64,000 nucleotides of DNA, taken from the NCBI GenBank assembly GCA_965200095.1, contig OZ241350.1, positions 694,853-758,852 on the forward strand. The letters run 5' to 3'. A program made the position numbers and the translations under genes. Origin of the DNA: Alphaproteobacteria bacterium (GTDB taxonomy: Bacteria > Pseudomonadota > Alphaproteobacteria > UBA7887). The notes below the pieces were generated by a model. It did not search any database. It saw only the letters and a list, made by a program, of their open reading frames with translations, and had not been told where the DNA came from. Positions 16,890 to 61,867 of this stretch are shown here, in pieces (within the stretch, counting starts at the first letter, position 1; each line of letters opens with the position of its first letter).

Positions 16890-18072
16890 TAGTGTCCCGC
16901 TTCTGAAGTTCGCATGATAATGTGTGTGATTATGTGGCTTGTGTGGAGGTCATGGGATGGGGCGTCGTGCGGGTCGGCCGGTTGCGTCCGTGGTGTTGAG
17001 CGACGAAGAGCGGTCGTATCTTGAGCGCCGGGTTCGCGGTCGTCGCGTTGGGCGTGCGCTTGCGGAGCGTTGCCGCATCGTCCTGCGTTGCGCCGATGGT
17101 TTGACGAACAAGGCGGTTGCTGCGGAAGTCGGCGTGCATGAACACACTGTCGGCAAGTGGCGTCGTCGTTTCCTGAAGGATCGCGTTGAGGGGTTGTCGG
17201 ACGCACCGCGTTCGGGGCGTCCGCGCAGCATAGAAGACGCCCGGGTGGCCGAGGTTGTCCGGCGGACGCTCGACGCGTCGCCGGTCGACGCCACCCATTG
17301 GTCGATCCGCTCGATGGCCCGGGAAGTGGGGCTTTCCCCGGCGTCGGTGCAACGGATCTGGAAGGCGTTCGGTCTGCAACCGCACCGGTCGGAGACGTTC
17401 AAGCTTTCCGGCGACCCGCAGTTCGTGGACAAGGCGCCGACATTGTCGGCCTCTATCTGTCGCCGCCGGATCGCGCGCCGGTGCTCTGCGTCGACGAAAA
17501 GAGCCGGATACAGGCGCTCGACCGCACCCGGCCCGTCCTGCCCATGACGCCGGGCATGGCCGAGAGGCGAACCCACGACTATCGGCGCAACGGGACGACC
17601 TCGCTGTTCGCCGCCCTCGACATCGCCACCGGTTTCGTTATCGGCAAGTGCTACAGGCGTTATCGGTCCCGGGAGTTCCTCTCCTTCCTCAAGGAAATCG
17701 ACGCCCATGTTCCCGATGACCTCGATATTCACATCGTCATGGACAACTACGCCACCCACAAGACCGCAGCGGTGAAATCCTGGATGGCGCGGCGTCCGCG
17801 CTATCGTGTTCACTTCACGCCGACCTCGGCGTCCTGGATCAATCGGGTGGAACGCCGGTTCGCCGAACTGACGCGCAAGCAGCTGCAAAGGGGCGCGCAT
17901 AACTCGACGAAACAGCTTGAAGCGGATATCCGCTCTTTTATCGACAAGCACAACCGGAACCCCAAACCCTTCAGGTGGACGAAATCCGCCGACGACATCC
18001 TCGCATCCGTCAAGCGCTTCTGCCATCGCGTCGAGCATACCCTATGCCACGAACTTTAGAGGCAGGACACTA
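16890..18072 (+). mobile_element. IS630-family insertion sequence, copy A
   Basis: 22-bp terminal IRs tagtgtcccgcttctgaagttcgc / rc tagtgtcctgcctctaaagttcgt, flanked by TA. Transposase in two overlapping frames. Identical copy inverted at 60684-61867. Confidence 0.85.
16939..18059 (+). CDS. IS630-family transposase (two overlapping frames, frameshift or pseudogene)
   Basis: N-terminal HTH (VGVHEHTVGKWRRRF) and a C-terminal DDE domain (HIVMDNYATHK ... SWINRVERRF). Confidence 0.8.
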
Positions 18073-18074
18073 GC

Positions 18075-18923
18075 CCAGGACTCATAACCGGAATATGACG
18101 GTTGCGGCGATGCAGATGGCGCTGAAGAAGGTGTGCGCGCAGCGGTCGTATCGCGTGGCAATGCGTCGCCAGTCCTTGAGCCGACCGAACATGCGCTCGA
18201 CGAGGTTGCGTTGCCTGTAGAGCCCGGCGTCGCAGGCGACCGGCTTCTTGCGGTGCGCCCGCCCGGGGATGCAGGGGGCGATTCCCCGTCCCTCCAGGGC
18301 TTCGCGGAAGCGGTCGCTGTCGTAGCCCTTGTCGCCAATCGGGACATCGGCGTCCGGCGGCAAGGCGTTGAACATCATCGCGGCTCCGCGATGGTCGCTG
18401 ACCTGCCCTTCGGTCAGCAGCATGATCGGGGGCTTGCCGTCGCCGTCGCAGACCGCGTGCAGTTTCGAGTTGAGGCCGCCCCGGGTGCGTCCGATACAGC
18501 GCGAAAGAGCCCCTTTTTTAGCAGACTGGCTGCGGTGCGGTGCGCCTTCAGATGGGTGGCGTCGATTATCGCTGTCCCCGTCGCCCGGCCCTCCGCCGCC
18601 AGGGCCGCGAAGATGCGGTTGAAGACGCCGGCCTCGCTCCACCGCACGAAGCGGTTGTAGAGGGTCTTGTGGGGACCGTATTCGGAGGGCGCGTGACGCC
18701 GGATGAGGCCGTATCGGATCACGTGGATGATGCCGGAGATGACGCGCCGGTCATCGACCCGGGGCACGCCGCGGACCTTGTTGGGCAGCAGCGGCCGGAT
18801 GCGGTCGAATTGAGCCTCGGAGAGCCAGACTTGGTGGTCGGACATGGTGCACCCCCTGTATCTGGTGGCAGCACACCACATACCCCAACCCAACGCAACC
18901 CCCTTTATGGGTACTGAGCCTGG
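18075..18923 (-). mobile_element. IS5-family IS, copy 2 (abuts IS630 copy A)
   Basis: Same IRs and ORFs as copy 1; proteins about 99% identical to copy 3. Confidence 0.85.
18082..18845 (-). CDS. IS5-family transposase OrfAB (frameshifted)
   Basis: MSDHQVWLSEAQFDRIRPLLPNKVRG... / ...DKGYDSDRFREALEGRGIAPCIPGR... Confidence 0.8.
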
Positions 18924-19316
18924 TCGCCGAGCGTTGAAGATACGCCGCGAAATCGCGGAACGTTTTCGTCTTCTTGATATCGAGAAGACGGAAAGACTCG
19001 CTGAAGGAATTACGCCCTTCCAGCGTGCGGGTCACGAGTGCATGACCGAAGCGGCGTCCGACGCGCATCTTGAGAGTTGGATAGAAATTCCCGCCGCTCG
19101 GTCGCGGACGCGATCGCAACCGTTCAAGCTCGGCGTCGTATGCGATATGGAATTGCCGTTCGGTGAGATCTCCAACATCGTAAATGCGGCGCAAGATAAC
19201 CAGTGTGCTTACCTTGAAGCGCAGGGCGATTCAATGAAGCGATGGGCCATAGGGGGTGACAGGATTTTCGGGACGATATACAAGGTGTTGTGGGTTTGGT
19301 TTCGAGGGTGTCCAGG

Positions 19317-20481
19317 ATGTCGGCTTCCGAGGGTTCGGGCGAGAGTTTGTGGGATGTTTTGGGCGAGATACCGGATCGCCGCGGGGCGAAGGGGCGTCGG
19401 TATTCGTTGCGTTCGGTTCTGGTTCTGACGCTTGCGGCGATGCTTTCGGGGGCCAACGACCTGCGCGCGGTGTATCGCTGGGGCCGTCGGCTGCCGGAGG
19501 ATGCGTTGTCTGTTCTGGGTCTGTCGGATGCTCCGCGCCATGCGACGTATCGCTATTTTTTCAAGGCGCTGGATGTGGAGGCGGCGGAGCGTGTGCTGGG
19601 GTCGTGGGCTTGCGGCTGCGATGCTCCGGGTCATGTTGCTCTGGACGGCAAGCGCCTGCGGAGCAGCGCGCCGGCGGGTCACGACGGGCGCAAGGGGGTT
19701 CATCTTGTGTCGGCGTTTGCCGGTCGTCCGGGGGCTGTGATTGGGCAGTTGCGGGTTGCGCCGGAGGGCAACGAGGCGACGGCGGCTCTGGCGTTGCTCA
19801 AGCGTCTGCCTCTCAAGGGTGCGGTTGTGACCGGCGATGCGGCGTTTTGCCGGCGCGCCCTGTGCGAGGCGATCCGCGACGGGGGCGGCGACTATTTGTT
19901 CGCCGTCAAGGCGAACCGGCCGGGTTCGATGTCCGACATCGCCGTTTCCTTCGGCGATGCTTTTCCCCCCTGAGCTGAACGCGGCGCTGGGCGGCGCTTC
20001 GCCGCAGGCCCTCCTGGCCGCCCCGCCGCCCGACGTCGAATATGCCGAGACCGTGGAGAAGGGCCATAGCCGCATCGAGATGCGCCGCCTTGCGCTGTCG
20101 TGCGAGGTCGTGCCCCATCGGCCGGGTGCGGCCCGGGTCTGCCGCATCGAGCGGACCTGTGAGCGCGCCGGCAAGACCTCCCGCGCGGTTTCCTGGGCGG
20201 TGACGAGCCTGCCCCGGGCCCGCGCCGGCCCGGAAGAGCTGCTCGCTCTCGTCCGCGAGCACTGGGGCATCGAAAACCGCCTCCACTACCGCCGCGATGT
20301 CGCCTTGCGCGAGGATGCGAGCCGTATCCGCGCCGGCAACGCGCCGCAGGCGCTGGCGGCGTTGCGGAACACCATGCTGCGGCTTGTGCATTCCCTGCCG
20401 GGTCCGCTTGCCGCGATCCGCGAAGCCTTCGCGGAAGACCGTCCCCACGCCATCGCCACCGCAAAATACGGGGTTCTTTGA
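19317..20481 (+). pseudogene. ISAs1-family (H-repeat-associated) transposase, split into two frames
   Basis: N-terminal ESLWDVLGEIPDRRGAKGRRYSLRSVLVLTLAAMLSGANDLRAVYRWGR and C-terminal EHWGIENRLHYRRDVALREDASRIRAGNAP are ISAs1 hallmarks. The reading frame breaks around 19840-19970. Confidence 0.7.
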
Positions 20482-20489
20482 ATTGCCCT

Positions 20490-21361
20490 GCCTTGAAGCG
20501 CCGCGCCATGCGCTGGAGCTCGGCCTGCAAGTCCTCTCCCCCTCGATATTCGTCGCGCACGACCGAAAGCGGAGCGAGCAGCTCCGCCGCAACCCGGTTG
20601 CACCAGGATTCGATCTCGTCCGTCGGCGCAGAGTCGGGGCGGCTGTCGGAAAGCGCGGTCTCTCCGAGCCAGAGATGCGCGAGCTCGTGCGCCAGCGTGA
20701 ACATTTGCGCGGCCTTCGTGTCGGCGCCGTTGACGAAAACGAGGGGGGGGGGGGGGGCGAAATCGTCGGCCAGCGCAAACCCCCGGAACTCCTCTGGATC
20801 GAGCTTGCGGCGAGTGTGGCTGCCGACGATGCCGGACACCATGACCAGGACGCCGAGCTCGTCCGCCTGCTCGATGAAGCGGCGCAACGCCTCCGTCCAG
20901 GTCCGGAGGTCGCGCCATTCCTCCAGATCGAACCCGAGCGCCCTGCGCATCCGCGCCGCGACCGTTTCGACATCGTCCGTCAAGCGGGCCGAACCGACGA
21001 ACGGCAGCGGGTCTTCCCCCTCGGAGCGGGCGAACTCCCGGTACCAGTCCTGGCGCTGCTGGCAGAAATAGATCGTGTGGAGGAGGTTCAGGCTGGGCCG
21101 GCCGACCGGCGCGCCGCCGACGGTGCGGAAATCAGGGATCGGGAACGGTTCGTCGGGCGGCTCGGACGTGAAGAAATATCCGACTCCGGCGTGCACGGTC
21201 TTCGCGAATTTCTCGAGCTGTTTGAGGGTCGGGCGAACATCGCCGTTCTCCCACTCGCGGTATCTGGGGAATTTGCGGACCAGCGCGTCCACGCTTACCC
21301 CGGCGCGCTCGCGGCCCCAGCGCAGCATCTCCGGTTTGACATCGACGCGGAAGGTGGTCAT
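20490..21361 (-). CDS. HTH + ImmA/IrrE-family (M78) metallopeptidase-like protein; 3' end probably disrupted by ISAs1
   Basis: ATG 21361 (GGGGG SD). HExxH in FTLAHELAHLWLGE. The N-terminal region resembles the HTH of IrrE-like proteins. Open frame reads through into ISAs1 with no natural stop; a possible 3' remnant lies on the minus strand at 18924-19194. Confidence 0.5.
20743..20757. repeat. G15 homopolymeric tract inside the ImmA-like coding sequence (encodes APPPPL on the minus strand)
   Basis: Counted directly: gag + 15 g + cga. Confidence 0.9.
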
Positions 21362-21690
21362 CGCCGCCCCCATTTGCGGAAATGCCGCAGCACGTCCTCG
21401 AGCCGCGCGCCATAGTCCCACTTTTCGTGAAAGGTCTCGAAGATATGGACGAGCTGCGCTTCTTTCAAGCCGTAGAGGCGGGCGGCGACGGCGTCGAGTT
21501 CGTGGATCATGTCGTCTTTCTCGTCCGCCGCGAGGGGCCCGCAATCGACCCCGACGGCCCCGGCCCAGGCGGCGAAACGGTCGTCCGGGCAAGCGAGACG
21601 CCCGGCGAGCTCGACGACGCGCCGCCATGGGGCGTCGTCGCGCCCGGGACGGGGGATCGGGAAGCAGTTGAATATGAAGTATGAGACCTC
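21358..21690 (-). pseudogene. C-terminal fragment resembling the end of Eco57I/PglX-type methyltransferases (..LDAVAARLYGLKEAQLVHIFETF..)
   Basis: Only the last 60-110 aa look protein-like; upstream it runs into the hairpin-repeat cluster. The LYGLTxEEI-type terminal motif is known from Type IIG/BREX MTases (from memory). Confidence 0.3.
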
Positions 21691-22185
21691 TGCATAACCG
21701 GTTTCGCTTGCCGCAGGATCGTCTTCCCGCGTCTTTACAACGCTCCCGAACTCACCGGCAGAGCATAACGATGTATATCGAACAATACTTCCATTCCCGC
21801 GAAAGAGCGTGTGAAGAAATCGGACGGCTCTCATCGTGACGGACGGATCGCCGAAGTAACGGAATTGTAAAAACAATAACCACCGAATAGTACTTCGTCA
21901 TTCCCGCGAAAGCGGGAATCCGGAGGCGGCCGTCCGCTATATCGGCCCGTTTTTCTTACGGAAACGCCGCAAACAGATTCCCGCTTTCGCGGGAATGACG
22001 AGTATTTGTAAGGCCGTCCTATTTCTTCACATGCTGTTTCGCGAGAATTACCGAGGCAGGGGGCGGATGTTCCCAATTCCGTCACGCATCGTCATACGCC
22101 GACGGCGGGTTCGGAAACGTCGCGAAACGCCGGGAACACAATCCTGCTACAGGCGAAACGAGTTATGCAGAGGTCTCAAGTATGT
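21690..22185. repeat. cluster of REP/MITE-like hairpin repeats (core gtcattcccgcgaaagcgggaatc palindrome)
   Basis: Multiple direct and inverted copies of ttcccgcgaaagcgggaa hairpins and associated 60-100-bp modules. Homologous clusters at 41560-42750 and 61880-62545. Confidence 0.6.
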
Positions 22186-23617
22186 AACATTGGTTTCGAC
22201 GAACCGCCTCGCATACCAGTCGAGCGGTATCGAACAGAGAATTCCGAGCAGAAACGCCTCGTCTTTCTCATCGCCGCGCGGCCAAAGCAGATACGGCCCT
22301 TTGTGGGTGATGAATATCCCGGGCGGCACGAGACAGGCGATCACCGTTCGCGAGCCGAAGCCCTCGCTACATCTCGGAACGCGATCCTCGGCGCAAAGCA
22401 CGGCAAGGTGGACCTGTCACGCAGGTGCTCCCGGCGACGCGCGCGGCGAGCTCCTGCGCCTTCTGCTTCAGCGACCGCCGCCTGTAGGCGTCGTTGAAGC
22501 GGTAAGGCAGGAGGTCCCGGTCCTCGGCATAGGCGATGAACAACAGGCGGAACAGGACCGTCAGCGCCATCTCGTAAGCGCGCGCGAGTTCCCCGGGCGA
22601 CGGCGCGGCGAGGTTGCGCGCGGCGGCCATGCCCCGCGCCAGCGTGGGGACGACGCGGTCGTAGATCCGCTCCCGCAGGCGCTCGGCCAGACCGCCGGAG
22701 AAACGGCGGGAGTCCGCCAGTATCCGGTCGAGACTCCCGCCGGGCGTCAGGGCCTCCGCCGAGTAGAGCAGCCAGAGACAGGGCAGATGCTCGTCCGCCA
22801 GCAGCGGCGGCTGGCACTCGACCCAGGTCTCCGTGCGCCCGCGCCGGCCGACCCCCGCATCGACATCGGCGGCGTAGAGGCGCAAGCGGCTCCCCTGCGT
22901 GAGGAGCGCCCAGCGAAGGTTCTCGTCGTCGGCTTTCTTGAGCGCGTAAGAAACCGGCGACAGGCTGTTGAAACGCCGGTTCGCGGCTTCCGGCGATTCG
23001 TTCTCCCGCAGCATCACCGCCAGCGCGGCGCTGCGGTCGCCGGCGCGCAGCCGCCAGGTCAGGTTGTCGATCCGCTCGACCCGGAAGCCGAGCGCGGCCA
23101 GAAGCTCGCCGTCGCGCTTGCCGAGCGCGTTCGCCGCCTTGCGTTTGGCAGCCGCCCAGTCGTCGCGCCGCGGAACGCCATGCTGGAGTTCGTGCAGGGC
23201 GAGAAGCCCTTCGTTGGCGATCCCGGGCAAGGCGGTTTCCAGCGACGGCAGCGCCTGCGACAGGAAGCGCAGCGCCGCGTGCCGGTCGGGCTGACCGAGG
23301 GCCTCGCGGCACAGCCGTTCGACGCGATCCGCATCCATGCCGGTATGGACCGGCGGCGCTTCGCCGGCGGCGCCGCACAGCGCCGCGCCCCCGGAATGCA
23401 GCACGACCAGAAGAACGGGCGCCGGCCGGCCCTTGCGCCGGGCTTTCCATGCCTCCAGCAGCGCCGTCCGTCCGGGGGCCCGGGGAGCGCGGGCGACCGC
23501 GACCTCGAGCGCATTCGCGCCGGCGCCGAGGAACAGCCCCGCCGCCGCGAAGCCGCTCCCGGCCCGCGGCGACCAGTGCCGGGGCGCGAGATCGGCGAGG
23601 AATCCGCTTCCTTCCAT
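22147..23617 (-). pseudogene. remnant of a large Type IIG R-M / BREX PglX-like gene: about 400-aa N-terminal part plus out-of-frame TaqI_C-like fragment
   Basis: Frame A (23617 to 22367) ends ..LFRLLFIAYAEDRDLLPYRFNDAYRRRS, the helical linker motif preceding the MTase domain in Eco57I/MmeI/PglX-type proteins. A different frame at 22401 to 22147 encodes FLLGILCSIPLDWYARRF (TaqI_C-like). The entire MTase core is missing. Confidence 0.35.
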
Positions 23618-23824
23618 CGCGATGCGCTGTCCTGCAAAATGCGGGGCCGGTCGGCGCGCGACACGGACGGTCGTTCGAATCCTGTCGGCGGCGTCTTCTC
23701 GCACCGTTCTTTCGGAGACGCCACCCCTGCCGCTATCGTTCCCGGACGCAACGGCTTGCCGGGGGGCGGGCGGATTGCGTAGGGTGCGCGCCTTCGTGAG
23801 GTTTCGGCAAGGGAGGACGCGGCG

Positions 23825-24736
23825 ATGACCGGGTTCGAGCCGTTCGCGGGCGTGTTGCCGCCCGTCGTCACCCCGTTCGACGAAGATCTGGCGCCCGACC
23901 GCGCCGCCTTCGTCGCGCATTGCCGGCGGTTGCTCGAACAGGGCGCCGACGGACTCGCGGTGTTCGGCACCACCGGCGAGGCGAACTCGCTGTCGGCGGA
24001 CGAACGCATGGCGCTGCTGGACGCGCTGACGGAGGACGGCATCGACGCCGCCGCGCTGATGCCGGGGACGGGGTGCTGCGCGCTCCCCGACACGGTGCGG
24101 CTGACGCGCCATGCGCTCGACGCCGGTTGCGGCGGCGTGCTGACGTTGCCGCCGTTCTACTACAAGGGGGTGAGCGACGACGGGGTGTTCGCCAGCATCG
24201 CCGAACCGATCGAGCGTATCGGCGACGCGCGTTTGCGGGTCTATCTCTACCACATCCCGCCGATGGCCGGGGTCGGGTTTTCGCTCGATGTCGTGGGGCG
24301 CCTGATCGAAGCCTACCCGCAGACCGTCGTCGGGTTGAAGGACAGTTCGGGGGACTGGAGCAACACCGGGGCGCTGATCCGCGCGTTTCCGGGCTTCGCG
24401 GTGTTTTCCGGGTCGGAAGTTTTCCTGCTCGCGAATCTGCGCGCCGGCGGCGCCGGCTGCATCACCGCAACCGGCAATGTGAACCTCGCGAATATCCGCG
24501 GGCTCTACGCGCGCTGGCGGACGCCCGAAGCCGACGCCCTGCAAGCCGAAATCACCGCGTTGCGCGAAACCGTGCAGGCGCGGCCCATGATCCCGGCGCT
24601 CAAGGCGATTCTCGCGGCCCATACCGGCGCGCCGGGGTGGGCGCGGGTGCGGCCGCCGCTCGCAGCGCTGGACGCGGCCGCCGCGGCGGCGCTCGCCGGG
24701 GCGCTGGCCGCGCACGGTTTCGCTCTCGCCGCGTAA
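23825..24736 (+). CDS. dihydrodipicolinate synthase family lyase (DapA-like)
   Basis: 303 aa. FGTTGE motif, and YxxP...K-type class I aldolase fold residues. Confidence 0.85.
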   Translation: MTGFEPFAGVLPPVVTPFDEDLAPDRAAFVAHCRRLLEQGADGLAVFGTTGEANSLSADERMALLDALTEDGIDAAALMPGTGCCALPDTVRLTRHALDAGCGGVLTLPPFYYKGVSDDGVFASIAEPIERIGDARLRVYLYHIPPMAGVGFSLDVVGRLIEAYPQTVVGLKDSSGDWSNTGALIRAFPGFAVFSGSEVFLLANLRAGGAGCITATGNVNLANIRGLYARWRTPEADALQAEITALRETVQARPMIPALKAILAAHTGAPGWARVRPPLAALDAAAAAALAGALAAHGFALAA

Positions 24737-24761
24737 CGCCGGCGGCGCGCCGGACCCGGCG

Positions 24762-25280
24762 ATGGTCCTGTCCCTCGAGGCCGTGCGCGCGCTCGCGCCG
24801 CCGGGGCGCTATTTCGCGCTGGCGGGGCTTTGCTCCGCGGGAATGCTGGCGACGGCGCTGGGGTTCCAGTATCTCGGCGGCCTCGCGCCCTGCGAATTGT
24901 GTCACTGGCAGCGCGTCCCCTACGCGGCGGTCGTCGTGCTGGCGGCGGCCGGCCTGCTGCTGCGCGGGCGACTGTCGCCGGGGGCGACGACGGCGTTCGC
25001 AGCCGGGTGCGCGGCGCTGTTCTTCGCCGACGCCGCCATCGCCGGCTTCCATGTCGGGGTCGAACAGGGCTGGTGGGCCGGAACCTCGAGCTGCGCCGCC
25101 GCCGATGCGCCGGCGGACGATCTGGACGCGCTGCGCGACGCCGTGTTCGCCGCGCCCGCGGTCTTTTGCGACGCGGTGGCGTGGTCTTTCGCGGGGCTGT
25201 CCATGGCGGCGTGGAACGGCCTCGCGGCGCTGGCCCTGGGCGGCGCGTCGGCGGTTGTCGTCGCGGGGCGGCTGCGGTGA
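24762..25280 (+). CDS. dsbB: disulfide bond formation protein B
   Basis: 172 aa, four TM helices; CELCHWQR redox motif and a second Cys pair. Confidence 0.8.
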   Translation: MVLSLEAVRALAPPGRYFALAGLCSAGMLATALGFQYLGGLAPCELCHWQRVPYAAVVVLAAAGLLLRGRLSPGATTAFAAGCAALFFADAAIAGFHVGVEQGWWAGTSSCAAADAPADDLDALRDAVFAAPAVFCDAVAWSFAGLSMAAWNGLAALALGGASAVVVAGRLR

Positions 25281-25849
25281 GGCGGCGGCCGCTGCCGGGC
25301 GACCTTGCCGGCGCGGATCTGCGGGCGCGCGCGCTGCGCGTCGATCACGCCGGCGAGCTGGCGGCGGTGCGCATCCTTGAAGGCCAGCTCGCCGTGCTCG
25401 GCGACGCCCCGGCGGCGCCGCCGATCCGCGAGATGGCGGCGCAGGAACGGCGTCACCTGGAAACCTTCGAGCGCCTGGTCGCGCGCGACCGGGTGCGCCC
25501 GACGGTCCTGGCGCCGCTGTGGCATGCGGTCGGGTTCGCGCTCGGCGCCGCGTCCGCGCTCGCCGGTCCGCGCGCGGCGATGGCGTGCACAGCCGCCATC
25601 GAGGAAGCGATCGAGACGCATTACGCGCGTCAGATCGCGGCGCTGGAAGCGGACCCCGACGCCGACCGCGAGGACGGCGAAGACGGCGGGGAGCGGAGGC
25701 TGAGCGCGGTGCTGAGAGCGTTCCGGGACGACGAGATCGCCCATCGCGACGCCGCGCGGGCCCACGGCGCGGACGCTGCGCCGGCGCCGCTCGGAGCGCT
25801 GGTGCGCAGCGGCTGCCGCGCGGCGATCCGGCTCTCCGAACGGTTCTGA
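25277..25849 (+). CDS. coq7: demethoxyubiquinone hydroxylase (Coq7 family)
   Basis: GTG start overlapping the dsbB stop (GTGA). Motifs LRVDHAGELAAVRILEGQ and EExEHL-like diiron ligands (EEAIETHY, DDEIAHRD). Confidence 0.75.
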   Translation: MRRRPLPGDLAGADLRARALRVDHAGELAAVRILEGQLAVLGDAPAAPPIREMAAQERRHLETFERLVARDRVRPTVLAPLWHAVGFALGAASALAGPRAAMACTAAIEEAIETHYARQIAALEADPDADREDGEDGGERRLSAVLRAFRDDEIAHRDAARAHGADAAPAPLGALVRSGCRAAIRLSERF

Positions 25850-25865
25850 GCGGCGGGAGAGGCGC

Positions 25866-27866
25866 ATGACGGTTTCCGAACACGCGGACACGGTCGATCT
25901 GGCGGCGGCGGCGTCGCGGGCCGGCGGCGCGGTGTCGCCGGAGGCGCTCGGCGACTTCCTGCGCGGCGCGGCGGCGGCGCCCGAGGGGCCGGACCCGGAC
26001 GCCTGGATCGACCTTGTCGCGCCGGAGGCGGACGCGGCGCTGCGGGCCCGTCTGCGCCGCGCGCGCGAGGCGGCGCGGGCCGTCCCGGCGGCGGCGCCCG
26101 ACCGCGCCGCGAGGCTCGCCCGGCTGCGCGGCGAACTCGCCCGGCGCGGGCTCGACGGGTTCATGGTCCCGCGCGCCGACGAACATCAGGGCGAATGGGT
26201 CCCCCGGCGCGCCGACCGCCTCGCCTGGATCTGCGGCTTCACGGGGTCGGCGGGCGTGGCGGCGGTGCTGCGCGAACGCGCGGCGCTGTTCGTCGACGGA
26301 CGCTACACGCTACAGGCGGAAAGCGAAGCGGCGGAAGAATTCGAGCGGGCGGCGCCGGGCGACCTGCCGGATTGGCTGGCGTCCGCCCTCGGGGCCGGCG
26401 CGCGGCTCGGCTACGACCCGTGGCTGCACACCCGGCGCGGGCGGGAGACGCTCGAGGCCGCGTGCGAACGCGCCGGCGCGTCGCTGATTCCGGTCGGGGA
26501 CAACCCTCTGGATGCGGTGTGGGAGGACCGGCCGCCGCCGCCTATCGCCCCGGTCGTCGCGCATGAGGAGCGCCATGCGGGGCGGAGCGCCGCCGACAAG
26601 CGCGCCGCCTGCGCCGCGGAGCTGGCGCGCGAGGGGCTCGACGCCGCGGTGCTCACCCTGCCGGACTCGATCGCGTGGCTGCTCAACCTGCGCGGCGGCG
26701 ACGTGGCCTTCACGCCGCTGGCGCTGGCGTTCGCGGTCCTGCGCGTCGACGAGACGGTCGACCTGTTCATCGACCGGCGCAAATTGTCGCCGGGCGTGGC
26801 CGCGCATCTCGGCGCCGGCGTGCGCGCGCATGAGCCGGCGGCGTTCGAGGCGGCGCTGCGGGGGTTGCGCGGGCGCGTTGCGGCGGACCCCGACAGCGCC
26901 GCCGAACAGGTGTTCCGCGCGCTCGCGGCGGGGCGCGCCGAGGCGGTGGAAAGCGCCGACCCCTGCGTGCTCGCGAAAGCGGTGAAGAACGCCGTGGAGC
27001 TCGACGGCGCGCGCGCCGCCCATCGCCGCGACGGCGCGGCGCTGGCGCGGTTCCTGCGCTGGCTCGACGAGAACGCGCCGCGCGGCGGAGTCGACGAGAT
27101 CGCCGCCGCGGACCGTCTCGAGGCCGAGCGCCGCAAGGACGCGGATTTCCGCGGACCGAGTTTCCCGACCATCTCCGGCGCCGGGCCGAACGGCGCAATT
27201 GTCCACTACCGCGTGAGCGCGGAGAGCAACCGTCCCCTCGCGCCGGGGACGTTCTACCTGGTGGATTCGGGGGGGCAGTATCCGGACGGGACGACCGACG
27301 TAACCCGCACCGTGGCGGTCGGGACGGCGGACGCGGAAATGCGCGACCGCTTCACGCGCGTGTTGAAGGGGCATATCGCGCTGGCGCGGGCGCGGTTTCC
27401 CGCCGGCGCGACGGGGGCCCGACTCGACGCGCTGGCCCGCGCGGCGCTGTGGCGGGCGGGCCTCGACTATCGTCACGGGACCGGCCACGGGGTCGGCAGC
27501 TATCTCGGCGTGCATGAGGGGCCGCACGCCATTTCCCCCGCGGCGACGGACATAGCGCTGCGGCCGGGCATGATCGTCTCGAACGAACCCGGCTACTACA
27601 AGACCGGCGCGTGGGGGATTCGCATCGAGAACCTCGTCGCCGTCGTCGAAAGCGCGGAGGGCGAGGCGGGCGATTTCCTCGAATTCGAGACTCTGACGCT
27701 GGCGCCCATCGACCGCCGGGCCATCGACCTCTCCCTGCTGGAGGATGGGGAACGGCGATGGCTCGACACCTATCACGCGCGCGTTTTCGCGGCGCTCGCG
27801 CCGCTTCTCGACAGCGTCGACGCGGCCTGGCTGGAAGCGGCCTGCGCGCCGCTCGCCGCGGGTTGA
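25866..27866 (+). CDS. pepP: Xaa-Pro aminopeptidase (M24B, PepP family)
   Basis: 666 aa; HGTGHGVGSYLGVHEGP and the EPGYY pita-bread motifs. Confidence 0.85.
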   Translation: MTVSEHADTVDLAAAASRAGGAVSPEALGDFLRGAAAAPEGPDPDAWIDLVAPEADAALRARLRRAREAARAVPAAAPDRAARLARLRGELARRGLDGFMVPRADEHQGEWVPRRADRLAWICGFTGSAGVAAVLRERAALFVDGRYTLQAESEAAEEFERAAPGDLPDWLASALGAGARLGYDPWLHTRRGRETLEAACERAGASLIPVGDNPLDAVWEDRPPPPIAPVVAHEERHAGRSAADKRAACAAELAREGLDAAVLTLPDSIAWLLNLRGGDVAFTPLALAFAVLRVDETVDLFIDRRKLSPGVAAHLGAGVRAHEPAAFEAALRGLRGRVAADPDSAAEQVFRALAAGRAEAVESADPCVLAKAVKNAVELDGARAAHRRDGAALARFLRWLDENAPRGGVDEIAAADRLEAERRKDADFRGPSFPTISGAGPNGAIVHYRVSAESNRPLAPGTFYLVDSGGQYPDGTTDVTRTVAVGTADAEMRDRFTRVLKGHIALARARFPAGATGARLDALARAALWRAGLDYRHGTGHGVGSYLGVHEGPHAISPAATDIALRPGMIVSNEPGYYKTGAWGIRIENLVAVVESAEGEAGDFLEFETLTLAPIDRRAIDLSLLEDGERRWLDTYHARVFAALAPLLDSVDAAWLEAACAPLAAG

Positions 27867-27870
27867 GGAG

Positions 27871-28686: not shown

Positions 28687-28809
28687 GCGCGCGCCGCCGC
28701 GGGATTGCAATCGCCGCATCGACGGCGCATCGACAGTCCGTTGACAGGCTGGGCGCCGCGGCTATAGTCGCGGCTTGCGAAAGACGGGGGCGCGAAGCGC
28801 GGCGCAACG

Positions 28810-29151
28810 ATGTATGCAGTCGTGAAAACCGGTGGCAAGCAGTACCGGGTGTCGAGGAACGACGTGATCAAGGTCGAAACCCTCCCCGGCGCGGCCGGAG
28901 ACCGGGTGACGCTCGGCGACGTGCTCATGGTCGTGGACGGCGCAGAGGTGCGTATCGGCGCGCCCATGGTGGCCGGGGCGTCGGTGGCGGCGACCGTGCT
29001 CGAGCAGATGCGCGAGGACAAGATCGCCGTATTCAGGAAAATCAGGCGCAAGGGCCATCGCCGCAAGCGCGGACACCGCCAGGCGAAGACGGTGTTGCGC
29101 ATCGGCGATATCGACCCGGGCGAGTCGGGGAGCACGCGCGATGGCGCATAA
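28810..29151 (+). CDS. rplU: 50S ribosomal protein L21
   Basis: [14 protein letters not shown]... classic L21 N-terminus. Confidence 0.95.
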
Positions 29152-29422
29152 GAAAGCGGGCGGGAGTTCGCGCAACGGCCGCGATTCGGCGGGAAGGCGC
29201 CTCGGCGTCAAGAAATACGGCGGCGAGATCGTGATCCCGGGGAACATCATCGTGCGCCAGCGCGGCACGCGGTTCCACCCCGGAAGTCACGTGGGGATGG
29301 GCCGCGACCACACGCTGTTCGCGACCGCGCCGGGCCGGGTCGCCTTCCGCCGCGGGCGTCGGGGCCGCACCTACGTGTCGGTGGACGCCGCGGGCGCTGC
29401 CGCGGCGAACCCGGGCGGCTGA
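29141..29422 (+). CDS. rpmA: 50S ribosomal protein L27
   Basis: [29 protein letters not shown]... classic L27. Confidence 0.95.
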
Positions 29423-47309: not shown

Positions 47310-47312
47310 GGC

Positions 47313-49939: not shown

Positions 49940-50070
49940 CGGCAGGTTCCCTTCGTCATCGGTGTGAAATAGATACGGTGGGGAGCTACGAATTGCGAGT
50001 CGGGCAGCATTCTACCGGCAACACCCATAACGCCATCGAACGGCTTTCCGCAGCGGCTCGCCGCCATTGC

Positions 50071-52374: not shown

Positions 52375-52582
52375 TTTGCCCTCTACATTCGCAACATGAT
52401 GCGGGCGCAGTGCCACTCCGGCATGCGCCGTGATGGTAGAGAGGCTTTTGCGTGCCGCATTTCGGATGTACGCATGCCAATCTGGGGCTGTCTCGGTTGA
52501 TATCAGGCATTGGAGCACATCCTCGCATCTTGGTCAACCCTCTTTCGCGCGTGCGCCCGGAATTCAGGGCTGCGACCATGCG

Positions 52583-53539
52583 CTATCGCCGCGCCGTCGG
52601 CAACTCCGCGAGCGCAGCCGCCACGTCGGGCACGTTAAGGCGGGCGAGCGGCGAACGGCGGAGGACGCGGACGGCAGGGCCGCGGGGCGCGCTGAGGGCA
52701 GGGTTGGAAGCCGCGCCGAACAACGCAACCGTCGGGCAGCCGCAGACGGCGATGATGTGTGTCGGGCCCGTGTCGTTGCCGACTGCGCAGTGCGCGCTGC
52801 GGGCGAGAGCCGCAACCTGACCGAGGGACGTGCGGCCGCACAGGTCGATCGCCTCCGGAGCGGCGGCGGCGATTCGCGCGAGCGCGCGGCCCTCCGGCGC
52901 GGCGCCGATCAGGACAGGCGAAGTCCCCTCACGGGCGAGCGCCCGCGCCAGCGCGGCATAGTGCTCAGCTGGCCAGCGCTTCGCCGGATGGCGCCGAGAA
53001 CAGCCGGGAATCAGAAGCGCGAAACGCTCGGGCAGACGGAAATGGGAGGTCTCGCCGTCAAGCCACGAAAGACCCGGCGGCGGTGTTTCCGGGATTCCCG
53101 CCATGGCGAGCTGCTCGGCCTGGCGGTCGAGGGTGTGCATGGAGTTACGGCCCGGGTTGGCGTGAGGATGCGAGCAGCCGGCGGCGATGCCCGACCATTC
53201 GGGCGTGCGACCCGGCGGAAACAGGCGGAAATACCGCGCGGAGCGGCGCGAGGTCTGGAGATCGTACACGCGGTCGAATCCCCCCCCCCCCCCCCCCCCC
53301 GCGAGGCGTCGGCGCAGCGCGCGCCAGGCGAAGACCCGCCAGCGCCCCGGACGGTCGTCGATCCACACATCGTCGAACCAGCCGCAGCGCCGCCCCAGAG
53401 CTGCGAACAGCGGCCCGGTCAACAGCACGATATGCGCCGCCGGATGGTGCGCGCGGATGGCGGCGAAAGGCCCGGTCGCCTGCACCCAATCGCCGAGCGC
53501 GCCCAGTTTGATGACGAGAATGCGCTCGGCGGTCTTCAT
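52583..53539 (-). CDS. ADP-heptose:LPS heptosyltransferase (GT9, RfaC/RfaF family)
   Basis: N-terminus MKTAERILVIKLGALGD and C-terminus AVGNDTGPTHIIAVCGCPTVALFG are GT9 hallmarks. Confidence 0.8.
   Translation of the reverse strand: MKTAERILVIKLGALGDWVQATGPFAAIRAHHPAAHIVLLTGPLFAALGRRCGWFDDVWIDDRPGRWRVFAWRALRRRLAGGGGGGGFDRVYDLQTSRRSARYFRLFPPGRTPEWSGIAAGCSHPHANPGRNSMHTLDRQAEQLAMAGIPETPPPGLSWLDGETSHFRLPERFALLIPGCSRRHPAKRWPAEHYAALARALAREGTSPVLIGAAPEGRALARIAAAAPEAIDLCGRTSLGQVAALARSAHCAVGNDTGPTHIIAVCGCPTVALFGAASNPALSAPRGPAVRVLRRSPLARLNVPDVAAALAELPTARR
53280..53300. repeat. C21 (G21 on coding strand) homopolymeric tract inside the heptosyltransferase CDS, encoding Gly7
   Basis: Counted directly: gaatc + 21 c + gcgagg; in frame (RRLAGGGGGGGFDRV). 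Confidence 0.9.
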
Positions 53540-53556
53540 CGCAGGGCGGGAGCGCA

Positions 53557-54876
53557 TCAGAGCGGGAGGGTCATGCGGGCGCGGAGGCCGCCGAAGGGGG
53601 AAGCGGCGAGCTGGATGTCGCCGCCATGGTTGCGCACCGCGTCGCGGGCGATGGAAAGGCCGAGGCCGACGCCGCCGGTGTCGGGGTTGCGCGCCGCGTC
53701 GAGACGGAAAAAGGGCTTGAAAACCTCCTCGCGGCTCGCTTCGGGGACCCCCGGGCCGTCGTCGTCGAGGGTGAGCGCCAGCGCGCCGCCCTCGCGCGCG
53801 ACGGTCAGCTGCGCCCGGCGCCCGTAGCGCAGCGCGTTGTCGATGAGGTTGACGAGCGCGCGCTTGACGGCGCCGGCGCGCAGGGTCGGACGCAGGCCGG
53901 GCGCGCGGTTGACGAGCGCCAGCGCCGCGCCGCGCCGGCGCGCGCCGGCCAGCGCCGAGTCGATCAGCGCGTCCAGATCGGTCTCCGCCGCGGTCTCGCC
54001 GCCCTCGCCGCGGGCGAAGGCCAGATAGCCCTCGATCATGCGCTCCATGTCGCCGACATCGGCCCGCAGCTCGCGCGCCGCCTCTTCGTCCGCGATCATT
54101 TCGATCTGCAACTTCATGCGGGTCAGCGGCGTTCGCAGGTCGTGGCTCACGCCGGCGAGCATTTCCGTGCGCTGCGAAATGTGCCGCTGGATGCGTTCGC
54201 GCATTTGCAGGAAGGCGCGCGCCGCCTGCCGCGCCTCGCGCGCGCCGCGCGGCTTGAAGTCCGCCGCCGGGATGCCCTTGCCGAAACTCTCCGCCGCGCG
54301 CGCCAGACCGATGATCGGCGCGACCTGCCCGCGCAGGAAATAGACCGCCGCCGCCAGCAGCACCAGCGATGTCCCCGCCATCCAGCCGATGAACACGTAA
54401 ACCGTCGAGCTGAACAGGCGCTTGCGCGGCGTCGCCGCCTCCAAAACGCCCGACGGCAATTCGACGGAAATGAACACCGTGCCCGGTTCGCGGCGCGTGT
54501 CGAAACGGACGGGGCGGTGGATAAGTTCCGGCAGCACCCGCGCCAGGGTCCAGTCGACGGGGCCGAAATGCGGGTGTGCCGGCGGTCCGTCCGCCAGCCG
54601 CGCGCCCGGACGGAAGACGGCGTCGATTTTGAGGCTCCGCCGCGCCCGGTCGATCAGCCAGAGCGGGTCCACCGCGGCGCCCCGCGCCGCCACGGCGTCG
54701 GCCAGCACCGCGATGTCGCCGGCGACCGACTGCGCGAGCCGGCGACCCACATCCTCCCAGAGGCGGTCGTAGAAGACGAAGGCGGACACCGCCTGCACGA
54801 CCGCCAGCGGGACCACGACGATGAGCAGCGACCGCCCGAACAGTCCGCGCGGCAGGAAGGCGCGCGGACCTTTCAC
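53557..54876 (-). CDS. sensor histidine kinase (EnvZ/PhoQ-type, two TM helices)
   Basis: GTG start with GGGGAGG SD. H-box GVSHDLRTPL; N, G1, G2 boxes (DDGPGVP, GGVGLGLSI). Confidence 0.85.
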   Translation of the reverse strand: MKGPRAFLPRGLFGRSLLIVVVPLAVVQAVSAFVFYDRLWEDVGRRLAQSVAGDIAVLADAVAARGAAVDPLWLIDRARRSLKIDAVFRPGARLADGPPAHPHFGPVDWTLARVLPELIHRPVRFDTRREPGTVFISVELPSGVLEAATPRKRLFSSTVYVFIGWMAGTSLVLLAAAVYFLRGQVAPIIGLARAAESFGKGIPAADFKPRGAREARQAARAFLQMRERIQRHISQRTEMLAGVSHDLRTPLTRMKLQIEMIADEEAARELRADVGDMERMIEGYLAFARGEGGETAAETDLDALIDSALAGARRRGAALALVNRAPGLRPTLRAGAVKRALVNLIDNALRYGRRAQLTVAREGGALALTLDDDGPGVPEASREEVFKPFFRLDAARNPDTGGVGLGLSIARDAVRNHGGDIQLAASPFGGLRARMTLPL

Positions 54877-54915
54877 CGCTCGCCTCCCCGCGCCCGCCGG
54901 CGGCGGTCGCCGCGG

Positions 54916-55629
54916 TCACTGCGCGGCGCGCAGGACATATCCGGTGCCGCGCACCGTGGCGATGCAGCCCGGCGCGCGCGGGTCGGGTTCGATTTTGCGC
55001 CGCAGGCGGGCGACGCCGACATCGATCGAACGCTCGGCGACGCCGGTCTCGGCGCTCAGGGCGGCGCGCGTCACCGCTTCTCCCGCCCGTGCGGCGAGGG
55101 CGCGCAACAATCCCGTCTCGGTGACGCCGAGCGCCACCTCGGCGCCGTCGCGCGTCAGGCGCCCGCTAGCCGGGTCGAAGACGAAGGCGCCGAACCGCAC
55201 GCGCCGCCCCGGCCGGTCGCGGCCCGAGCGTCGCAGGATGGCGCGCAGCCGCAACGCCAGTTCGCGCGGCTCGAAGGGCTTGGCGAGATAGTCGTCGACG
55301 CCGCTTTCCAGTCCGGCGACGCGCTCGTCGGGCGCGTCCATCGCGCTCAGCATGAGGATCGGCAGGTCGCCGTCGCGGCGCAGCGAGCGGGCGAAGCGCG
55401 TGCCCGTCTCCCCCGGCATCATCACGTCGAGGACCATGACATCGAAGGCGAGGCTTGCGAGCCGGGCGCGCGCATCGGCGGCCGAGGACGCGGTCGCCAC
55501 CAGGAAGCCGTTGTCGCCGAGATAGCGGCTCAGCAGCCGCCGCAGCCTCGCGTCGTCGTCGACGACGAGGACGTGCGGGCGCGCCTCGGGGGGAAGCGCC
55601 CCGGGCGGCGCGGTTGCGGGCGCCGCCAC
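54916..55629 (-). CDS. OmpR-family response regulator
   Basis: Receiver (VLVVDDD...LDVMMPGETG) plus a winged-helix C-terminus (...IATVRGTGYVL). Start inferred as GTG 55629; uncertain. Confidence 0.75.
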   Translation of the reverse strand: MAAPATAPPGALPPEARPHVLVVDDDARLRRLLSRYLGDNGFLVATASSAADARARLASLAFDVMVLDVMMPGETGTRFARSLRRDGDLPILMLSAMDAPDERVAGLESGVDDYLAKPFEPRELALRLRAILRRSGRDRPGRRVRFGAFVFDPASGRLTRDGAEVALGVTETGLLRALAARAGEAVTRAALSAETGVAERSIDVGVARLRRKIEPDPRAPGCIATVRGTGYVLRAAQ

Positions 55630-55637
55630 GGCGCGGC

Positions 55638-56129
55638 TCAGGCCGCCCGCCGCGCGGCGAAGCGGGCGCGGTCCTCGTCGGCGATCAGCCCGAGCAGGAC
55701 GCCGGCGAACCCCTCGACCGCCTGGCCGCCGGCGGCGCGGTAGGCGCGGGCGAGGCGCCGGCGCAGAACCAGCGACAGCCGGCGCTCGAGTTCGCGCCCC
55801 TTGTCGGTGAGGGTCAGCAGGCGCTGGCGCCGATCCGCCGACCCGCGCGCCTGGACGATATGGCCCGTGCGCACGAGCGTCGCCACCGCGCGGCCCAGAC
55901 TCTGCTTGGTGATCTTGAGGATGCCGAGCAGCCGGGCGATGGAGACGCCCGGGTTGCGGGCGACGAACCACAGCACCCGGTGATGGGCGCGGCCGAGGCC
56001 GAGGGGGCCGAGAACGCCGTCGCACTCGGCGATGAAGTCGCGGCCGGCGAAGAACAGCAACTCCATGCCGCGGTCGAGCTCGCGGTCGCGCAGGAACAGC
56101 GGGCTGGCGGGGGATTTCACGTCGCTCAT
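55638..56129 (-). CDS. MarR-family transcriptional regulator
   Basis: 163 aa; winged HTH HHRVLWFVARNPGVSIARLLGILKITKQSLGRAVATLVRTGHI. Confidence 0.8.
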   Translation of the reverse strand: MSDVKSPASPLFLRDRELDRGMELLFFAGRDFIAECDGVLGPLGLGRAHHRVLWFVARNPGVSIARLLGILKITKQSLGRAVATLVRTGHIVQARGSADRRQRLLTLTDKGRELERRLSLVLRRRLARAYRAAGGQAVEGFAGVLLGLIADEDRARFAARRAA

Positions 56130-56213
56130 GGCGGCGAGTAAAGCGCCGCGGCGCTGGCCAGCGCAAGCCCCCTCTGCTAGCCTGCGCCGCCGCGGCGGGA
56201 GAAAGGGATCTTT

Positions 56214-57096
56214 ATGCTCGACTTCGAAAATCGCGACGGCTGGATCTGGATGGACGGCGCTTTCACGCCCTGGCGCGACGCGAAACTGCACGTGCTGACC
56301 CACGGCCTTCACTACGCCTCCAGCGTCTTCGAGGGCGAGCGCGTCTACAGCGGCGCGATCTTCCGTCTCACCGAGCACACCGAGCGTCTGTTCGAATCGG
56401 CGCGCCAGCTCGGTTTCGCGATCCCCTGGACCGTCGCGGAGATCGACGCCGCCTGCCGGGAAGTCTGCCGCCGCAACGGCATCGAGGACGGCTATGTGCG
56501 CCCCGTCGCCTGGCGCGGCACCGAGATGATGGGGGTCTCGGCGCAGAAGAACGCCATCCACGTAGCGATCGCCGCCTGGCAATGGCCCTCCTATTTCGAC
56601 CCCGACGCGCGGTCGAAGGGGATTTCCCTCGCCTGGTCGAAATGGCGCCGGCCCGACCCGGCGACCATCCCCGCCAAAGCCAAGGCCGCCGGCCTCTACA
56701 TGATCTGCACGCTCGCCAAACACGACGCCGAGGCCGAAGGCTGTCACGACGCGCTCATGCTCGACTGGCGGGGCCGCCTCGCCGAGGCCACCGGCGCCAA
56801 TATCTTCCTCGCCATCGACGGCAAGCTGCATACCCCCGTCCCCGACTGTTTCCTCGACGGCATCACCCGGCGCTGCGTCATCGGTCTGGCGGAGAAGCGC
56901 GGCATCGAGGTGATCGAGCGGGTCATCATGCCCTCGGAACTCGAGCGCGCCGACGAAGTGTTCCTCACCGGCACAGCGGCGGAGGTCACGCCCGTGGGGC
57001 GGATCGGCGACCTGCATTTCCAGCCGGGAACCCTCTGTCGCCGGATGATCGAAGACTTCACGGCGCTGACGCAAGCCGAGAGCGCGGGGCCGGCGC

Positions 57097-57116
<20 letters not shown>
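56214..57116 (+). CDS. ilvE: branched-chain amino acid aminotransferase (class IV)
   Basis: 300 aa; N-terminus [43 protein letters not shown] is typical of IlvE. Confidence 0.9.
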
Positions 57117-59775
<2,659 letters not shown>

Positions 59776-59833
59776 GGCGCGCCGGGGGCCGGAAACCGGG
59801 CGCCCGAACCGGCGTATCTTCAACGCTCGGCGA

Positions 59834-60682
59834 CCAGGCTCAGTACCCATAAAGGGGGTTGCGTTGGGTTGGGGTATGTGGTGTGCTGCCACCAGATACA
59901 GGGGGTGCACCATGTCCGACCACCAAGTCTGGCTCTCCGAGGCTCAATTCGACCGCATCCGGCCGCTGCTGCCCAACAAGGTCCGCGGCGTGCCCCGGGT
60001 CGATGACCGGCGCGTCATCTCCGGCATCATCCACGTGATCCGATACGGCCTCATCCGGCGTCACGCGCCCTCCGAATACGGTCCCCACAAGACCCTCTAC
60101 AACCGCTTCGTGCGGTGGAGCGAGGCCGGCGTCTTCAACCGCATCTTCGCGGCCCTGGCGGCGGAGGGCCGGGCGACGGGGACAGCGATAATCGACGCCA
60201 CCCATCTGAAGGCGCACCGCACCGCAGCCAGTCTGCTAAAAAAGGGGCTCTTTCGCGCTGTATCGGACGCACCCGGGGCGGCCTCAACTCGAAACTGCAC
60301 GCGGTCTGCGACGGCGACGGCAAGCCCCCGATCATGCTGTTGACCGAAGGGCAGGTCAGCGACCATCGCGGAGCCGCGATGATGTTCAATGTCTTGCCGC
60401 CGGACGCCGATGTCCCGATTGGCGACAAGGGCTACGACAGCGACCGCTTCCGCGAAGCCCTGGAGGGACGGGGAATCGCCCCCTGCATCCCCGGGCGGGC
60501 GCACCGCAAGAAGCCGGTCGCCTGCGACGCCGGGCTCTACAGGCAACGCAACCTCGTCGAGCGCATGTTCGGTCGGCTCAAGGACTGGCGACGCATTGCC
60601 ACGCGATACGACCGCTGCGCGCACACCTTCTTCAGCGCCATCTGCATCGCCGCAACCGTCATATTCCGGTTATGAGTCCTGG
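59834..60682 (+). mobile_element. IS5-family IS, copy 3
   Basis: Near-identical to copy 2. A 23-bp flank (tcgccgagcgttgaagatacgcc) is also shared with copy 2, in inverted orientation. Confidence 0.85.
59912..60675 (+). CDS. IS5-family transposase OrfAB (frameshifted)
   Basis: OrfA identical to copy 2; OrfB differs by one residue (A to V). Confidence 0.8.
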
Positions 60683-60683
60683 G

Positions 60684-61867
60684 CTAGTGTCCTGCCTCTA
60701 AAGTTCGTGGCATAGGGTATGCTCGACGCGATGGCAGAAGCGCTTGACGGATGCGAGGATGTCGTCGGCGGATTTCGTCCACCTGAAGGGTTTGGGGTTC
60801 CGGTTGTGCTTGTCGATAAAAGAGCGGATATCCGCTTCAAGCTGTTTCGTCGAGTTATGCGCGCCCCTTTGCAGCTGCTTGCGCGTCAGTTCGGCGAACC
60901 GGCGTTCCACCCGATTGATCCAGGACGCCGAGGTCGGCGTGAAGTGAACACGATAGCGCGGACGCCGCGCCATCCAGGATTTCACCGCTGCGGTCTTGTG
61001 GGTGGCGTAGTTGTCCATGACGATGTGAATATCGAGGTCATCGGGAACATGGGCGTCGATTTCCTTGAGGAAGGAGAGGAACTCCCGGGACCGATAACGC
61101 CTGTAGCACTTGCCGATAACGAAACCGGTGGCGATGTCGAGGGCGGCGAACAGCGAGGTCGTCCCGTTGCGCCGATAGTCGTGGGTTCGCCTCTCGGCCA
61201 TGCCCGGCGTCATGGGCAGGACGGGCCGGGTGCGGTCGAGCGCCTGTATCCGGCTCTTTTCGTCGACGCAGAGCACCGGCGCGCGATCCGGCGGCGACAG
61301 ATAGAGGCCGACAATGTCGGCGCCTTGTCCACGAACTGCGGGTCGCCGGAAAGCTTGAACGTCTCCGACCGGTGCGGTTGCAGACCGAACGCCTTCCAGA
61401 TCCGTTGCACCGACGCCGGGGAAAGCCCCACTTCCCGGGCCATCGAGCGGATCGACCAATGGGTGGCGTCGACCGGCGACGCGTCGAGCGTCCGCCGGAC
61501 AACCTCGGCCACCCGGGCGTCTTCTATGCTGCGCGGACGCCCCGAACGCGGCGCGTCCGACAACCCCTCAACGCGATCCTTCAGGAAGCGACGACGCCAC
61601 TTGCCGACCGTGTGTTCATGCACGCCGACTTCCGCAGCAACCGCCTTGTTCGTCAAACCATCGGCGCAACGCAGGACGATGCGGCAACGCTCCGCAAGCG
61701 CACGCCCAACGCGACGACCGCGAACCCGGCGCTCAAGATACGACCGCTCTTCGTCGCTCAACACCACGGACGCAACCGGCCGACCCGCACGACGCCCCAT
61801 CCCATGACCTCCACACAAGCCACATAATCACACACATTATCATGCGAACTTCAGAAGCGGGACACTA
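60684..61867 (-). mobile_element. IS630-family IS, copy B (inverted relative to copy A)
   Basis: Same IRs and the same encoded proteins as copy A. Confidence 0.85.
60698..61818 (-). CDS. IS630-family transposase (two frames)
   Basis: Identical in sequence to 16939-18059. Confidence 0.8.

Follow-up and report, generated by a model that had tools for sequence, protein, structure and literature searches.

The window analysed here, a stretch of 64,000 nucleotides (nt) of contig OZ241350.1 from an alphaproteobacterium of the lineage UBA7887, carries two long inverted blocks, each composed of an IS630-family insertion sequence (IS), an IS5-family IS and a short piece of non-IS DNA. The blocks, named unit A and unit B, bracket about 41 kb of the chromosome. 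They are probably copies of one fossil composite, and homologous recombination between them has probably inverted the chromosomal segment that they enclose. Two observations lead us to regard this as an ordinary IS-mediated inversion, namely the near identity of the inverted blocks and the existence of a related strain with a flipped junction.

A repeat search of the window delimited an inverted repeat of 2058 nt with arms at 16890-18947 (unit A) and 59810-61867 (unit B), separated by 40,862 nt. Base-by-base comparison of the arms revealed six mismatches (99.7% identity), which lie in two patches, one in the IS630 element (17148, 17169 and 17205) and one in the IS5 element (18365, 18367 and 18417), and the similarity is lost abruptly and completely at both arm ends. 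Long and highly similar inverted repeats are thus present at both breakpoints. From the outside to the inside, each unit consists of a TA dinucleotide, the IS630-family element, a second TA, the IS5-family element on the opposite strand and 27 nt of non-IS DNA (Table 1), and the IS630/IS5 junction, acacTAgcccagg, is the same in both units. The original prediction had described near-identical units in opposite orientation with an identical IS630/IS5 junction, and both statements hold, including the junction sequence that it quoted. Its location of the units was also right, with each inner end 1 nt short of the true positions (18947 and 59810); the shared non-IS flank that it reported exists, with a length of 27 nt and not 23.

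The near identity of the copies might be taken to mean that the assembly of the source genome placed a single locus twice. This is extremely unlikely, because the copies have six fixed differences and three of the four unit/flank junctions are found in independent assemblies of other samples (L086, L087 and L090).

These relatives are metagenome contigs that were found by exact-protein look-up and are 97-99% identical to the window at the nucleotide level. Look-ups with the alanyl-tRNA synthetase (AlaRS), the restriction enzyme (two start variants), the IS5 orfA product (both copies) and the pterin dehydratase gave no exact match, and the best GTDB relatives by AlaRS (60-67% identical) are too distant for use in synteny. 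The proposed comparison of synteny with close relatives distinguished two arrangements. Contig L086 (ERZ25068253, 16 kb) is collinear with the window from 23202 down to 9446 and has the window arrangement at unit A, and L087 ends 21 nt into the IS630 element at the same site. The other arrangement occurs in ctg18674_2x (ERZ25068400, 38.8 kb, ~99% identity), which was sampled at both ends as L099 and L090. L099 corresponds to window positions 23012-34742, and L090 covers 44295-59809 and the entire unit and goes on into 16889-14389 in reverse orientation. The order in this contig is therefore restriction gene, IS630, IS5, flank and alaS, with about 36 kb collinear with the window on one side of the unit and 2.5 kb on the other. 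This is exactly the joint that a crossover between units A and B would generate, and it bears out the suggestion that recombination between the units would invert the segment. Both orientations are accordingly represented among close relatives, one by the window and L086 and the other by ctg18674, which has 2x coverage.

The unit of ctg18674 is a mosaic of the crossover type, A-type at 17148, 17169 and 17205 in the IS630 element and B-type at 18365, 18367 and 18417 in the IS5 element. Units A and B of the window are separated by six differences, against 19-28 between either of them and the L086 and L090 units, and they share four states that neither the L086 nor the L090 unit has. Thus, the two copies within the window are closer to each other than to their counterparts, though both junction types predate the split of the strains. 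This pattern points to concerted evolution by gene conversion between the copies within a genome.

Several points weigh against an inversion. The sole contig with the flipped joint has 2x coverage, and a join made by the assembler inside the repeat would give the same structure and the same mosaic of single-nucleotide differences. None of the contigs showed the reciprocal joint, ImmA remnant-unit-right flank, ctg18674 ending at the window equivalent of 23012, and the outer junction of unit B in the window is without independent support from other assemblies. Alternatively, the strain of ctg18674 could have just one unit, in another arrangement, instead of the two-unit isomer. The first of these points opens the way to an alternative in which the units are static inverted duplicates that have never recombined in nature and the flipped joint is an assembly chimera within the repeat. 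If A-like and B-like loci were joined in this way, precisely the A-type IS630/B-type IS5 mosaic would result, and the coverage recorded in the name of the contig and the missing reciprocal joint also agree with it. Nevertheless, ctg18674 comes from a long-read-style assembly and is collinear over ~36 kb and 2.5 kb around the unit, and its unit has 28 private differences, which marks a distinct strain. Moreover, the derived states shared by window units A and B and absent from other strains themselves require exchange between copies. We therefore judge the chimera unlikely and retain the inversion as the preferred reading.

Origin and decay of the IS630-IS5 composite

The original assignment of the elements to the IS630 and IS5 families is well founded. 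The IS630 element has terminal inverted repeats of 28 nt (82%; arms 16885-16912 and 18050-18077), and a TA stands at every IS630 end (16890-1, 18071-2, 60685-6 and 61866-7). Its transposase contains Pfam domains HTH_29/HTH_28/HTH_32 and DDE_3 and matches NCBIfam NF033545 (transpos_IS630) with 101.9 and 158.5 bits (cut-off 100). These scores belong to two open reading frames (ORFs), 16957-17547 and 17298-18059, since the transposase does not form one uninterrupted frame; profile positions 1-129 lie on ORF1 and 126-299 on ORF2, so that the split falls at about position 126-129. The element thus resembles the IS630/Tc1-mariner superfamily in its HTH and DDE_3 transposase, its terminal inverted repeats of ~25 nt and the TA at both ends, and differs from it in the interrupted frame. 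The interruption is present in all four copies examined, L086 and L090 having the same two-gene call, and no obvious slippery motif was seen. Judging from its sequence, the IS630 element of the composite is probably non-autonomous, with programmed frameshifting in the transposase a conceivable qualification. In the L090 unit, ~15 substitutions are confined to 130 bp of the IS630 element (window equivalent 17591-17723), a sign that another, more diverged IS630 copy of the same genome may have been the donor in patchy conversion.

The IS5 element belongs to the two-ORF subgroup (transpos_IS5_3; IS427-like). It is ~850 bp long, its orfA (DUF4096) and orfB (DDE_Tnp_1_2) both match NCBIfam transpos_IS5_3, and the two frames overlap at an A6G slippery site (18512-18521; coding strand, 18521-18512, CTAAAAAAGG). 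A third, solo copy in the window has intact 19-nt terminal repeats (95%) and a TA/CTAG target duplication (CTAG...CTAG), the target typical of the subgroup, and therefore defines the true ends of the element. By comparison with this copy, the left terminal repeat of the composite IS5 reads GCCCAGGAC where GGCTCAGGAC is expected, that is, the end beside IS630 is 1 nt short and has one substitution. The flanks of the composite copy are CTAG and CTGG, without a clean target duplication. It is a family member by its transposase, yet appears as a damaged element, and its short, substituted end together with the lack of a clean duplication indicates that it is probably immobile.

Both window copies and the copies of two other samples have the flank, the frameshift and the damaged IS5 end, so that the block behaves as a single fossil unit of decayed mobile DNA. 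The same features, with the common junction, uphold the suggestion that the pair was copied as one unit. No match to the junction was found in the JGI metagenomes, the one collection searched for it, and the composite was not found in plasmids, where separate IS630 or IS5 relatives of ~72% identity occur.

Table 1. Positions of the composite units, the solo IS5 copy and the adjoining genes in the window
Feature	Position	Strand	Details
TA target dinucleotide (IS630 duplication), outer end of unit A	16890..16891	.	within Leu codon of truncated restriction gene; full-length homologues ...GLTL/NQFQEMYRKD
IS630-family element, unit A, 1179 bp	16892..18070	+	terminal repeats, HTH_29/DDE_3, transpos_IS630
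TA common to IS630 right end and IS5 left end	18071..18072	.	sequence
IS5-family (IS5_3/IS427-like) element, unit A, 848 bp	18073..18920	-	orfA 18414-18845, orfB 18082-18642
Shared non-IS flank, unit A, 27 nt	18921..18947	.	TGGTCGCCGAGCGTTGAAGATACGCCG
Segment between units, 40,862 nt	18948..59809	.	Pfam on gene calls and alignments
27-nt flank inverted, unit B	59810..59836	.	starts 34 nt past alaS stop codon (59775)
IS5-family element, unit B	59837..60684	+	alignment with unit A
IS630-family element, unit B	60687..61865	-	flanking TA at 60685-60686 and 61866-61867
Third, solo IS5 copy	7014..7862	-	96% identical to unit IS5; orientation as in unit A
Type II DNA methyltransferase gene, partner of the restriction gene	14938..16188	-	Pfam, PADLOC
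Type II restriction endonuclease gene, truncated by IS630	16185..16889	-	PADLOC REase_II profile positions 47-273 of 276
ImmA/IrrE (M78) gene remnant	18943..21361	-	without last 6 codons at unit-A joint; split by ISAs1
ISAs1-family element in ImmA gene	19222-20490		DDE_Tnp_1_assoc and DDE_Tnp_1, transposase in two frames

The surroundings of the two units differ in character. At unit A, the restriction gene lacks ~36 N-terminal codons relative to full-length homologues of 271 residues (up to 97% identical), and the missing 5' codons were not found in the window (tblastn) or in any locus fetched. On the other side, intact ImmA homologues have 383 residues, are 96% identical and end with ...FRDFAASLEVDI. 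In the unit-free strain L098, the ImmA gene is followed by a DUF4411 gene and a PLD-SNF2 gene, and the DNA matches the window only to 18943. As read from these alignments, unit A does not occupy a simple insertion site; it marks a rearrangement joint at which a restriction gene cut short at its 5' end meets an ImmA gene cut short at its 3' end. The ImmA gene is additionally interrupted by an ISAs1 element, which is flanked by a target duplication of 10 bp, CCTTGAAGCG (19212-19221 and 20491-20500).

The 27-nt flank occurs only twice in the window and gave no matches in shuffled sequences; an exact search yielded no match in GTDB representative genomes or in JGI metagenomes. Its first 22 nt (18921-18942) are foreign to the ImmA gene, and the remaining CGCCG (18943-18947) is common to native ImmA, unit A and unit B. 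This overlap is either microhomology at an illegitimate joint or a matter of chance. Several other sources of the flank were considered and rejected. It is not native to ImmA, as intact homologues end with FAASLEVDI and the DNA homology stops at 18943; nor is it native to the restriction gene, with A as the founding site, which would give FNARRL where homologues read ADGLTL/NQFQE. The ends of the solo IS5 copy and the IS630 terminal repeats rule out that the flank is part of either IS, and the 14 nt in which the flank is complementary to IS630 (17015-17028) do not stand out from many chance pairs of the same list. The flank had been taken to speak against independent transposition of the two units, and being foreign to both the ImmA gene and the restriction gene, it does so.

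Unit B lies 34 nt past the stop codon of an intact alaS gene. When its inner and outer flanks are rejoined, they give ...GGCGA-CTAG-GCACC..., and because this restores a CTAG target, B is the likelier founding site and A the block copy. A strain with the window-type alaS end but no unit would then read ...TCTTCAACGCTCGGCGACTAGGCACCGAATCG... there or, with the TA set off, ...TCTTCAACGCTCGGCGAC-TA-GGCACCGAATCG.... This origin has two weak points. To reconstruct CTAG, one must assume one base change (CTGG for CTAG) and the loss of 1 nt from the IS5 end, and the empty B site was not found, the two IS-free contigs (L088 and L089) both differing from the window at the alaS 3' end from 59750 on.

On these grounds, the place of origin of the composite was probably the region downstream of alaS. 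The first insertion would have been that of IS630, whose end together with the TA recreated a CTAG that then received IS5; CTAG is the preferred target of IS630 itself. Unit A would have arisen as an inverted copy of the block and not by IS transposition. For the second copy, we favor a route in which the restriction gene already harbored an IS630 element. Recombination with unit B, or break-induced copying from it, would have extended this element until the copying stopped in ImmA through microhomology, with a 5-nt overlap (CGGCG). A crossover between the inverted copies by host homologous recombination, presumably dependent on RecA, would flip the 40.9-kb segment, and gene conversion would keep the two copies alike.

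IS elements can mobilize adjacent DNA by one-ended events, for example ISEcp1-type read-through, and junctions can also form by microhomology-mediated break-induced replication or template switching. The composite resembles such cases in that IS and adjacent DNA are duplicated together, one boundary being an IS end and the other an arbitrary point with a 5-nt overlap. It differs in that no evidence of transposase-driven read-through was seen here, the mechanism being deduced from a single junction.

A more active role of the IS630 transposase can be envisaged, although it appears distinctly unlikely. The whole block, including ~20 nt of the flank, would have been mobilized in trans from the IS630 left end, with the TA at 18941-18942 (59815-59816 in B) serving as a surrogate for the right end. 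The insertions would have been TA-to-TA, and both the second copy and the inversion would have come from an intramolecular event. Both copies do begin exactly at the IS630 left-end TA, and a TA stands at the very point where the homology of unit A to native ImmA resumes (between 18942 and 18943). However, the surrogate end, TA followed by TCTTCAACGC, is unlike the IS630 terminal repeat, TA followed by GTGTCCCGC, native ImmA has no TA at that position (GCGGCG/AGCC), and the identity of A and B extends 5 nt beyond the TA. In addition, IS630/Tc1-mariner elements transpose by cut-and-paste, which leaves no second copy behind, and the transposase of the unit itself is frameshifted. It is accordingly improbable that the IS630-IS5-flank block represents a new kind of mobile unit, in which an IS630 transposase acting in trans on the IS630 left end and a non-canonical end ~20 nt beyond IS5 duplicated the block in inverted orientation and inverted the chromosome between the copies in one event. 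A variant in which the second copy came from microhomology-primed, break-induced copying seeded from the IS is conceivable. Block copying followed by homologous recombination remains our preferred account.

The bracketed segment and related inversions

The segment between the units contains, in order, the ImmA remnant, ISAs1, a remnant of a type IIG restriction-modification gene, a dapA-like gene, dsbB, rplU-rpmA-obg-proBA, a NACHT island, the dpp operon, a two-component system, marR and alaS. These identities rest on the Pfam-annotated gene calls of the contigs that align to the window at 97-99%. The rplU, obg, proBA, alaS and dpp genes of the original prediction are all present, the last as a dpp-type ABC operon, as is rpmA, and the segment also holds decayed defence islands.

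Inverted IS copies around a segment, here with a TA at both outer ends, might suggest a composite transposon or a site-specific invertible switch with a dedicated enzyme. The content of the region is not accessory cargo but core chromosome, syntenic in the unit-free strains (rplU to dapA to ImmA in L098; alaS to dpp in L088/L089), and a TA, being present at every IS630 end, carries no information at the outer ends. No invertase gene was found beside the repeats, where the units and flanking genes that were scanned hold no enzymes other than IS transposases, and the repeats are 2 kb long instead of short recombination sites. It is therefore scarcely credible that the 45-kb region is such a transposon or switch. 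Furthermore, the outer junctions (restriction gene-IS630 and IS630-right flank) are constant, and a flip exchanges only the partner of the flank, ImmA remnant versus alaS 3' end. Because the outer junctions are unchanged by a flip, no basis is seen for a regulatory switch.

The guanine-cytosine (GC) skew is weakly positive throughout (+0.027 inside the segment and +0.04 to +0.06 outside; a weak signal). The suggested check for skew continuity at 18.9 and 59.8 kb showed no discontinuity and no change of sign, which is weak evidence that the window isomer is the replication-consistent orientation and not a recent departure from it.

Inversions by homologous recombination between inverted IS copies have been described in Streptococcus pyogenes (PMC11602124), and IS-associated inversions in Thermococcales (PMC5495485). 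The present case agrees with inversions of this kind in having near-identical inverted IS of kb scale, both orientations among close strains and no dedicated invertase. It differs from them in its repeat, which consists of two different, partly disabled IS fused to each other and 27 nt of other DNA in place of a single active IS. In addition, the segment, which is not known to lie symmetrically about the replication axis, is only 41 kb long.

Inversion between inverted IS is a well-known rearrangement, and the fused, partly disabled IS630-IS5 pair with its short foreign DNA is a minor twist. The finding would represent an inversion polymorphism, 41 kb in size, in an alphaproteobacterium of ~3.3 Mb and 70% G+C that is uncultured or poorly represented. 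It would also mean that disabled, fused IS still shape genome structure as passive recombination substrates, and that the two units form a predictable breakpoint for assemblers and for comparative work on the species. It adds an example and not a principle.

Variable regions around the units

The 3' end of alaS occurs in two forms among the strains, the window form (59750-59775) and that of L088/L089 (6200-6431), in which the last codons are replaced. In the latter contigs, a low-G+C island with a gene for a 200-residue protein, an N6_N4 methylase, a type ISP enzyme and other genes follows directly after alaS, giving the 3' end of the gene the appearance of an integration hotspot. A terminator scan after alaS in the window found nothing. 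Repeats like miniature inverted-repeat transposable elements (MITEs), with a palindromic core, TTCCCGCGAAAGCGGGAA, occur in three clusters (21682-22178, 41598-42741 and 61898-62536), the last of which starts 30 nt outside unit B. They are 75-98% alike and lie in both orientations, and the cluster at 21.7-22.2 kb is absent from the unit-free L098, which has ~47 bp there. These clusters are potential further recombination substrates.

Near unit A, remnants of a type IIG restriction-methyltransferase gene (22190-23731 and 21358-21897; PADLOC REase_MTase_IIG) lack ~2.35 kb relative to an intact Eco57I-type gene of 1071 residues in L098. On the other side of the unit, an autotransporter gene of 1.7 thousand codons (9518-14737) contains five internal repeats of 249 bp (11845-13140), and ctg18674 ends within this gene. 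The solo IS5 copy adjoins a low-G+C island at 3700-6920 (50-58% G+C), which is absent or diverged in L086. This island carries a ThiF/E1-like gene (PADLOC E1-E2, weak BilD) after two small ORFs and may encode a ubiquitin-like conjugation defence system. The region 7866-9330, absent from L086, holds coiled-coil protein genes composed of tandem repeats of 42 bp (10-12 copies); another block of repeats, which has diverged, follows ~850 bp downstream.

Within the bracketed segment, a variable slot of 48% G+C (50071-52533) lies between the dpp substrate-binding gene and the histidine kinase gene. It is occupied by a NACHT gene in the window and L001 and by GmrSD_N in L002 and L090, and corresponds to a gap of ~1.3 kb without a called gene in L088/L089. 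Finally, seven diverged 102-bp tandem repeats that are 61-76% identical to the reference copy lie at 40577-41382 within an ORF of unknown function.

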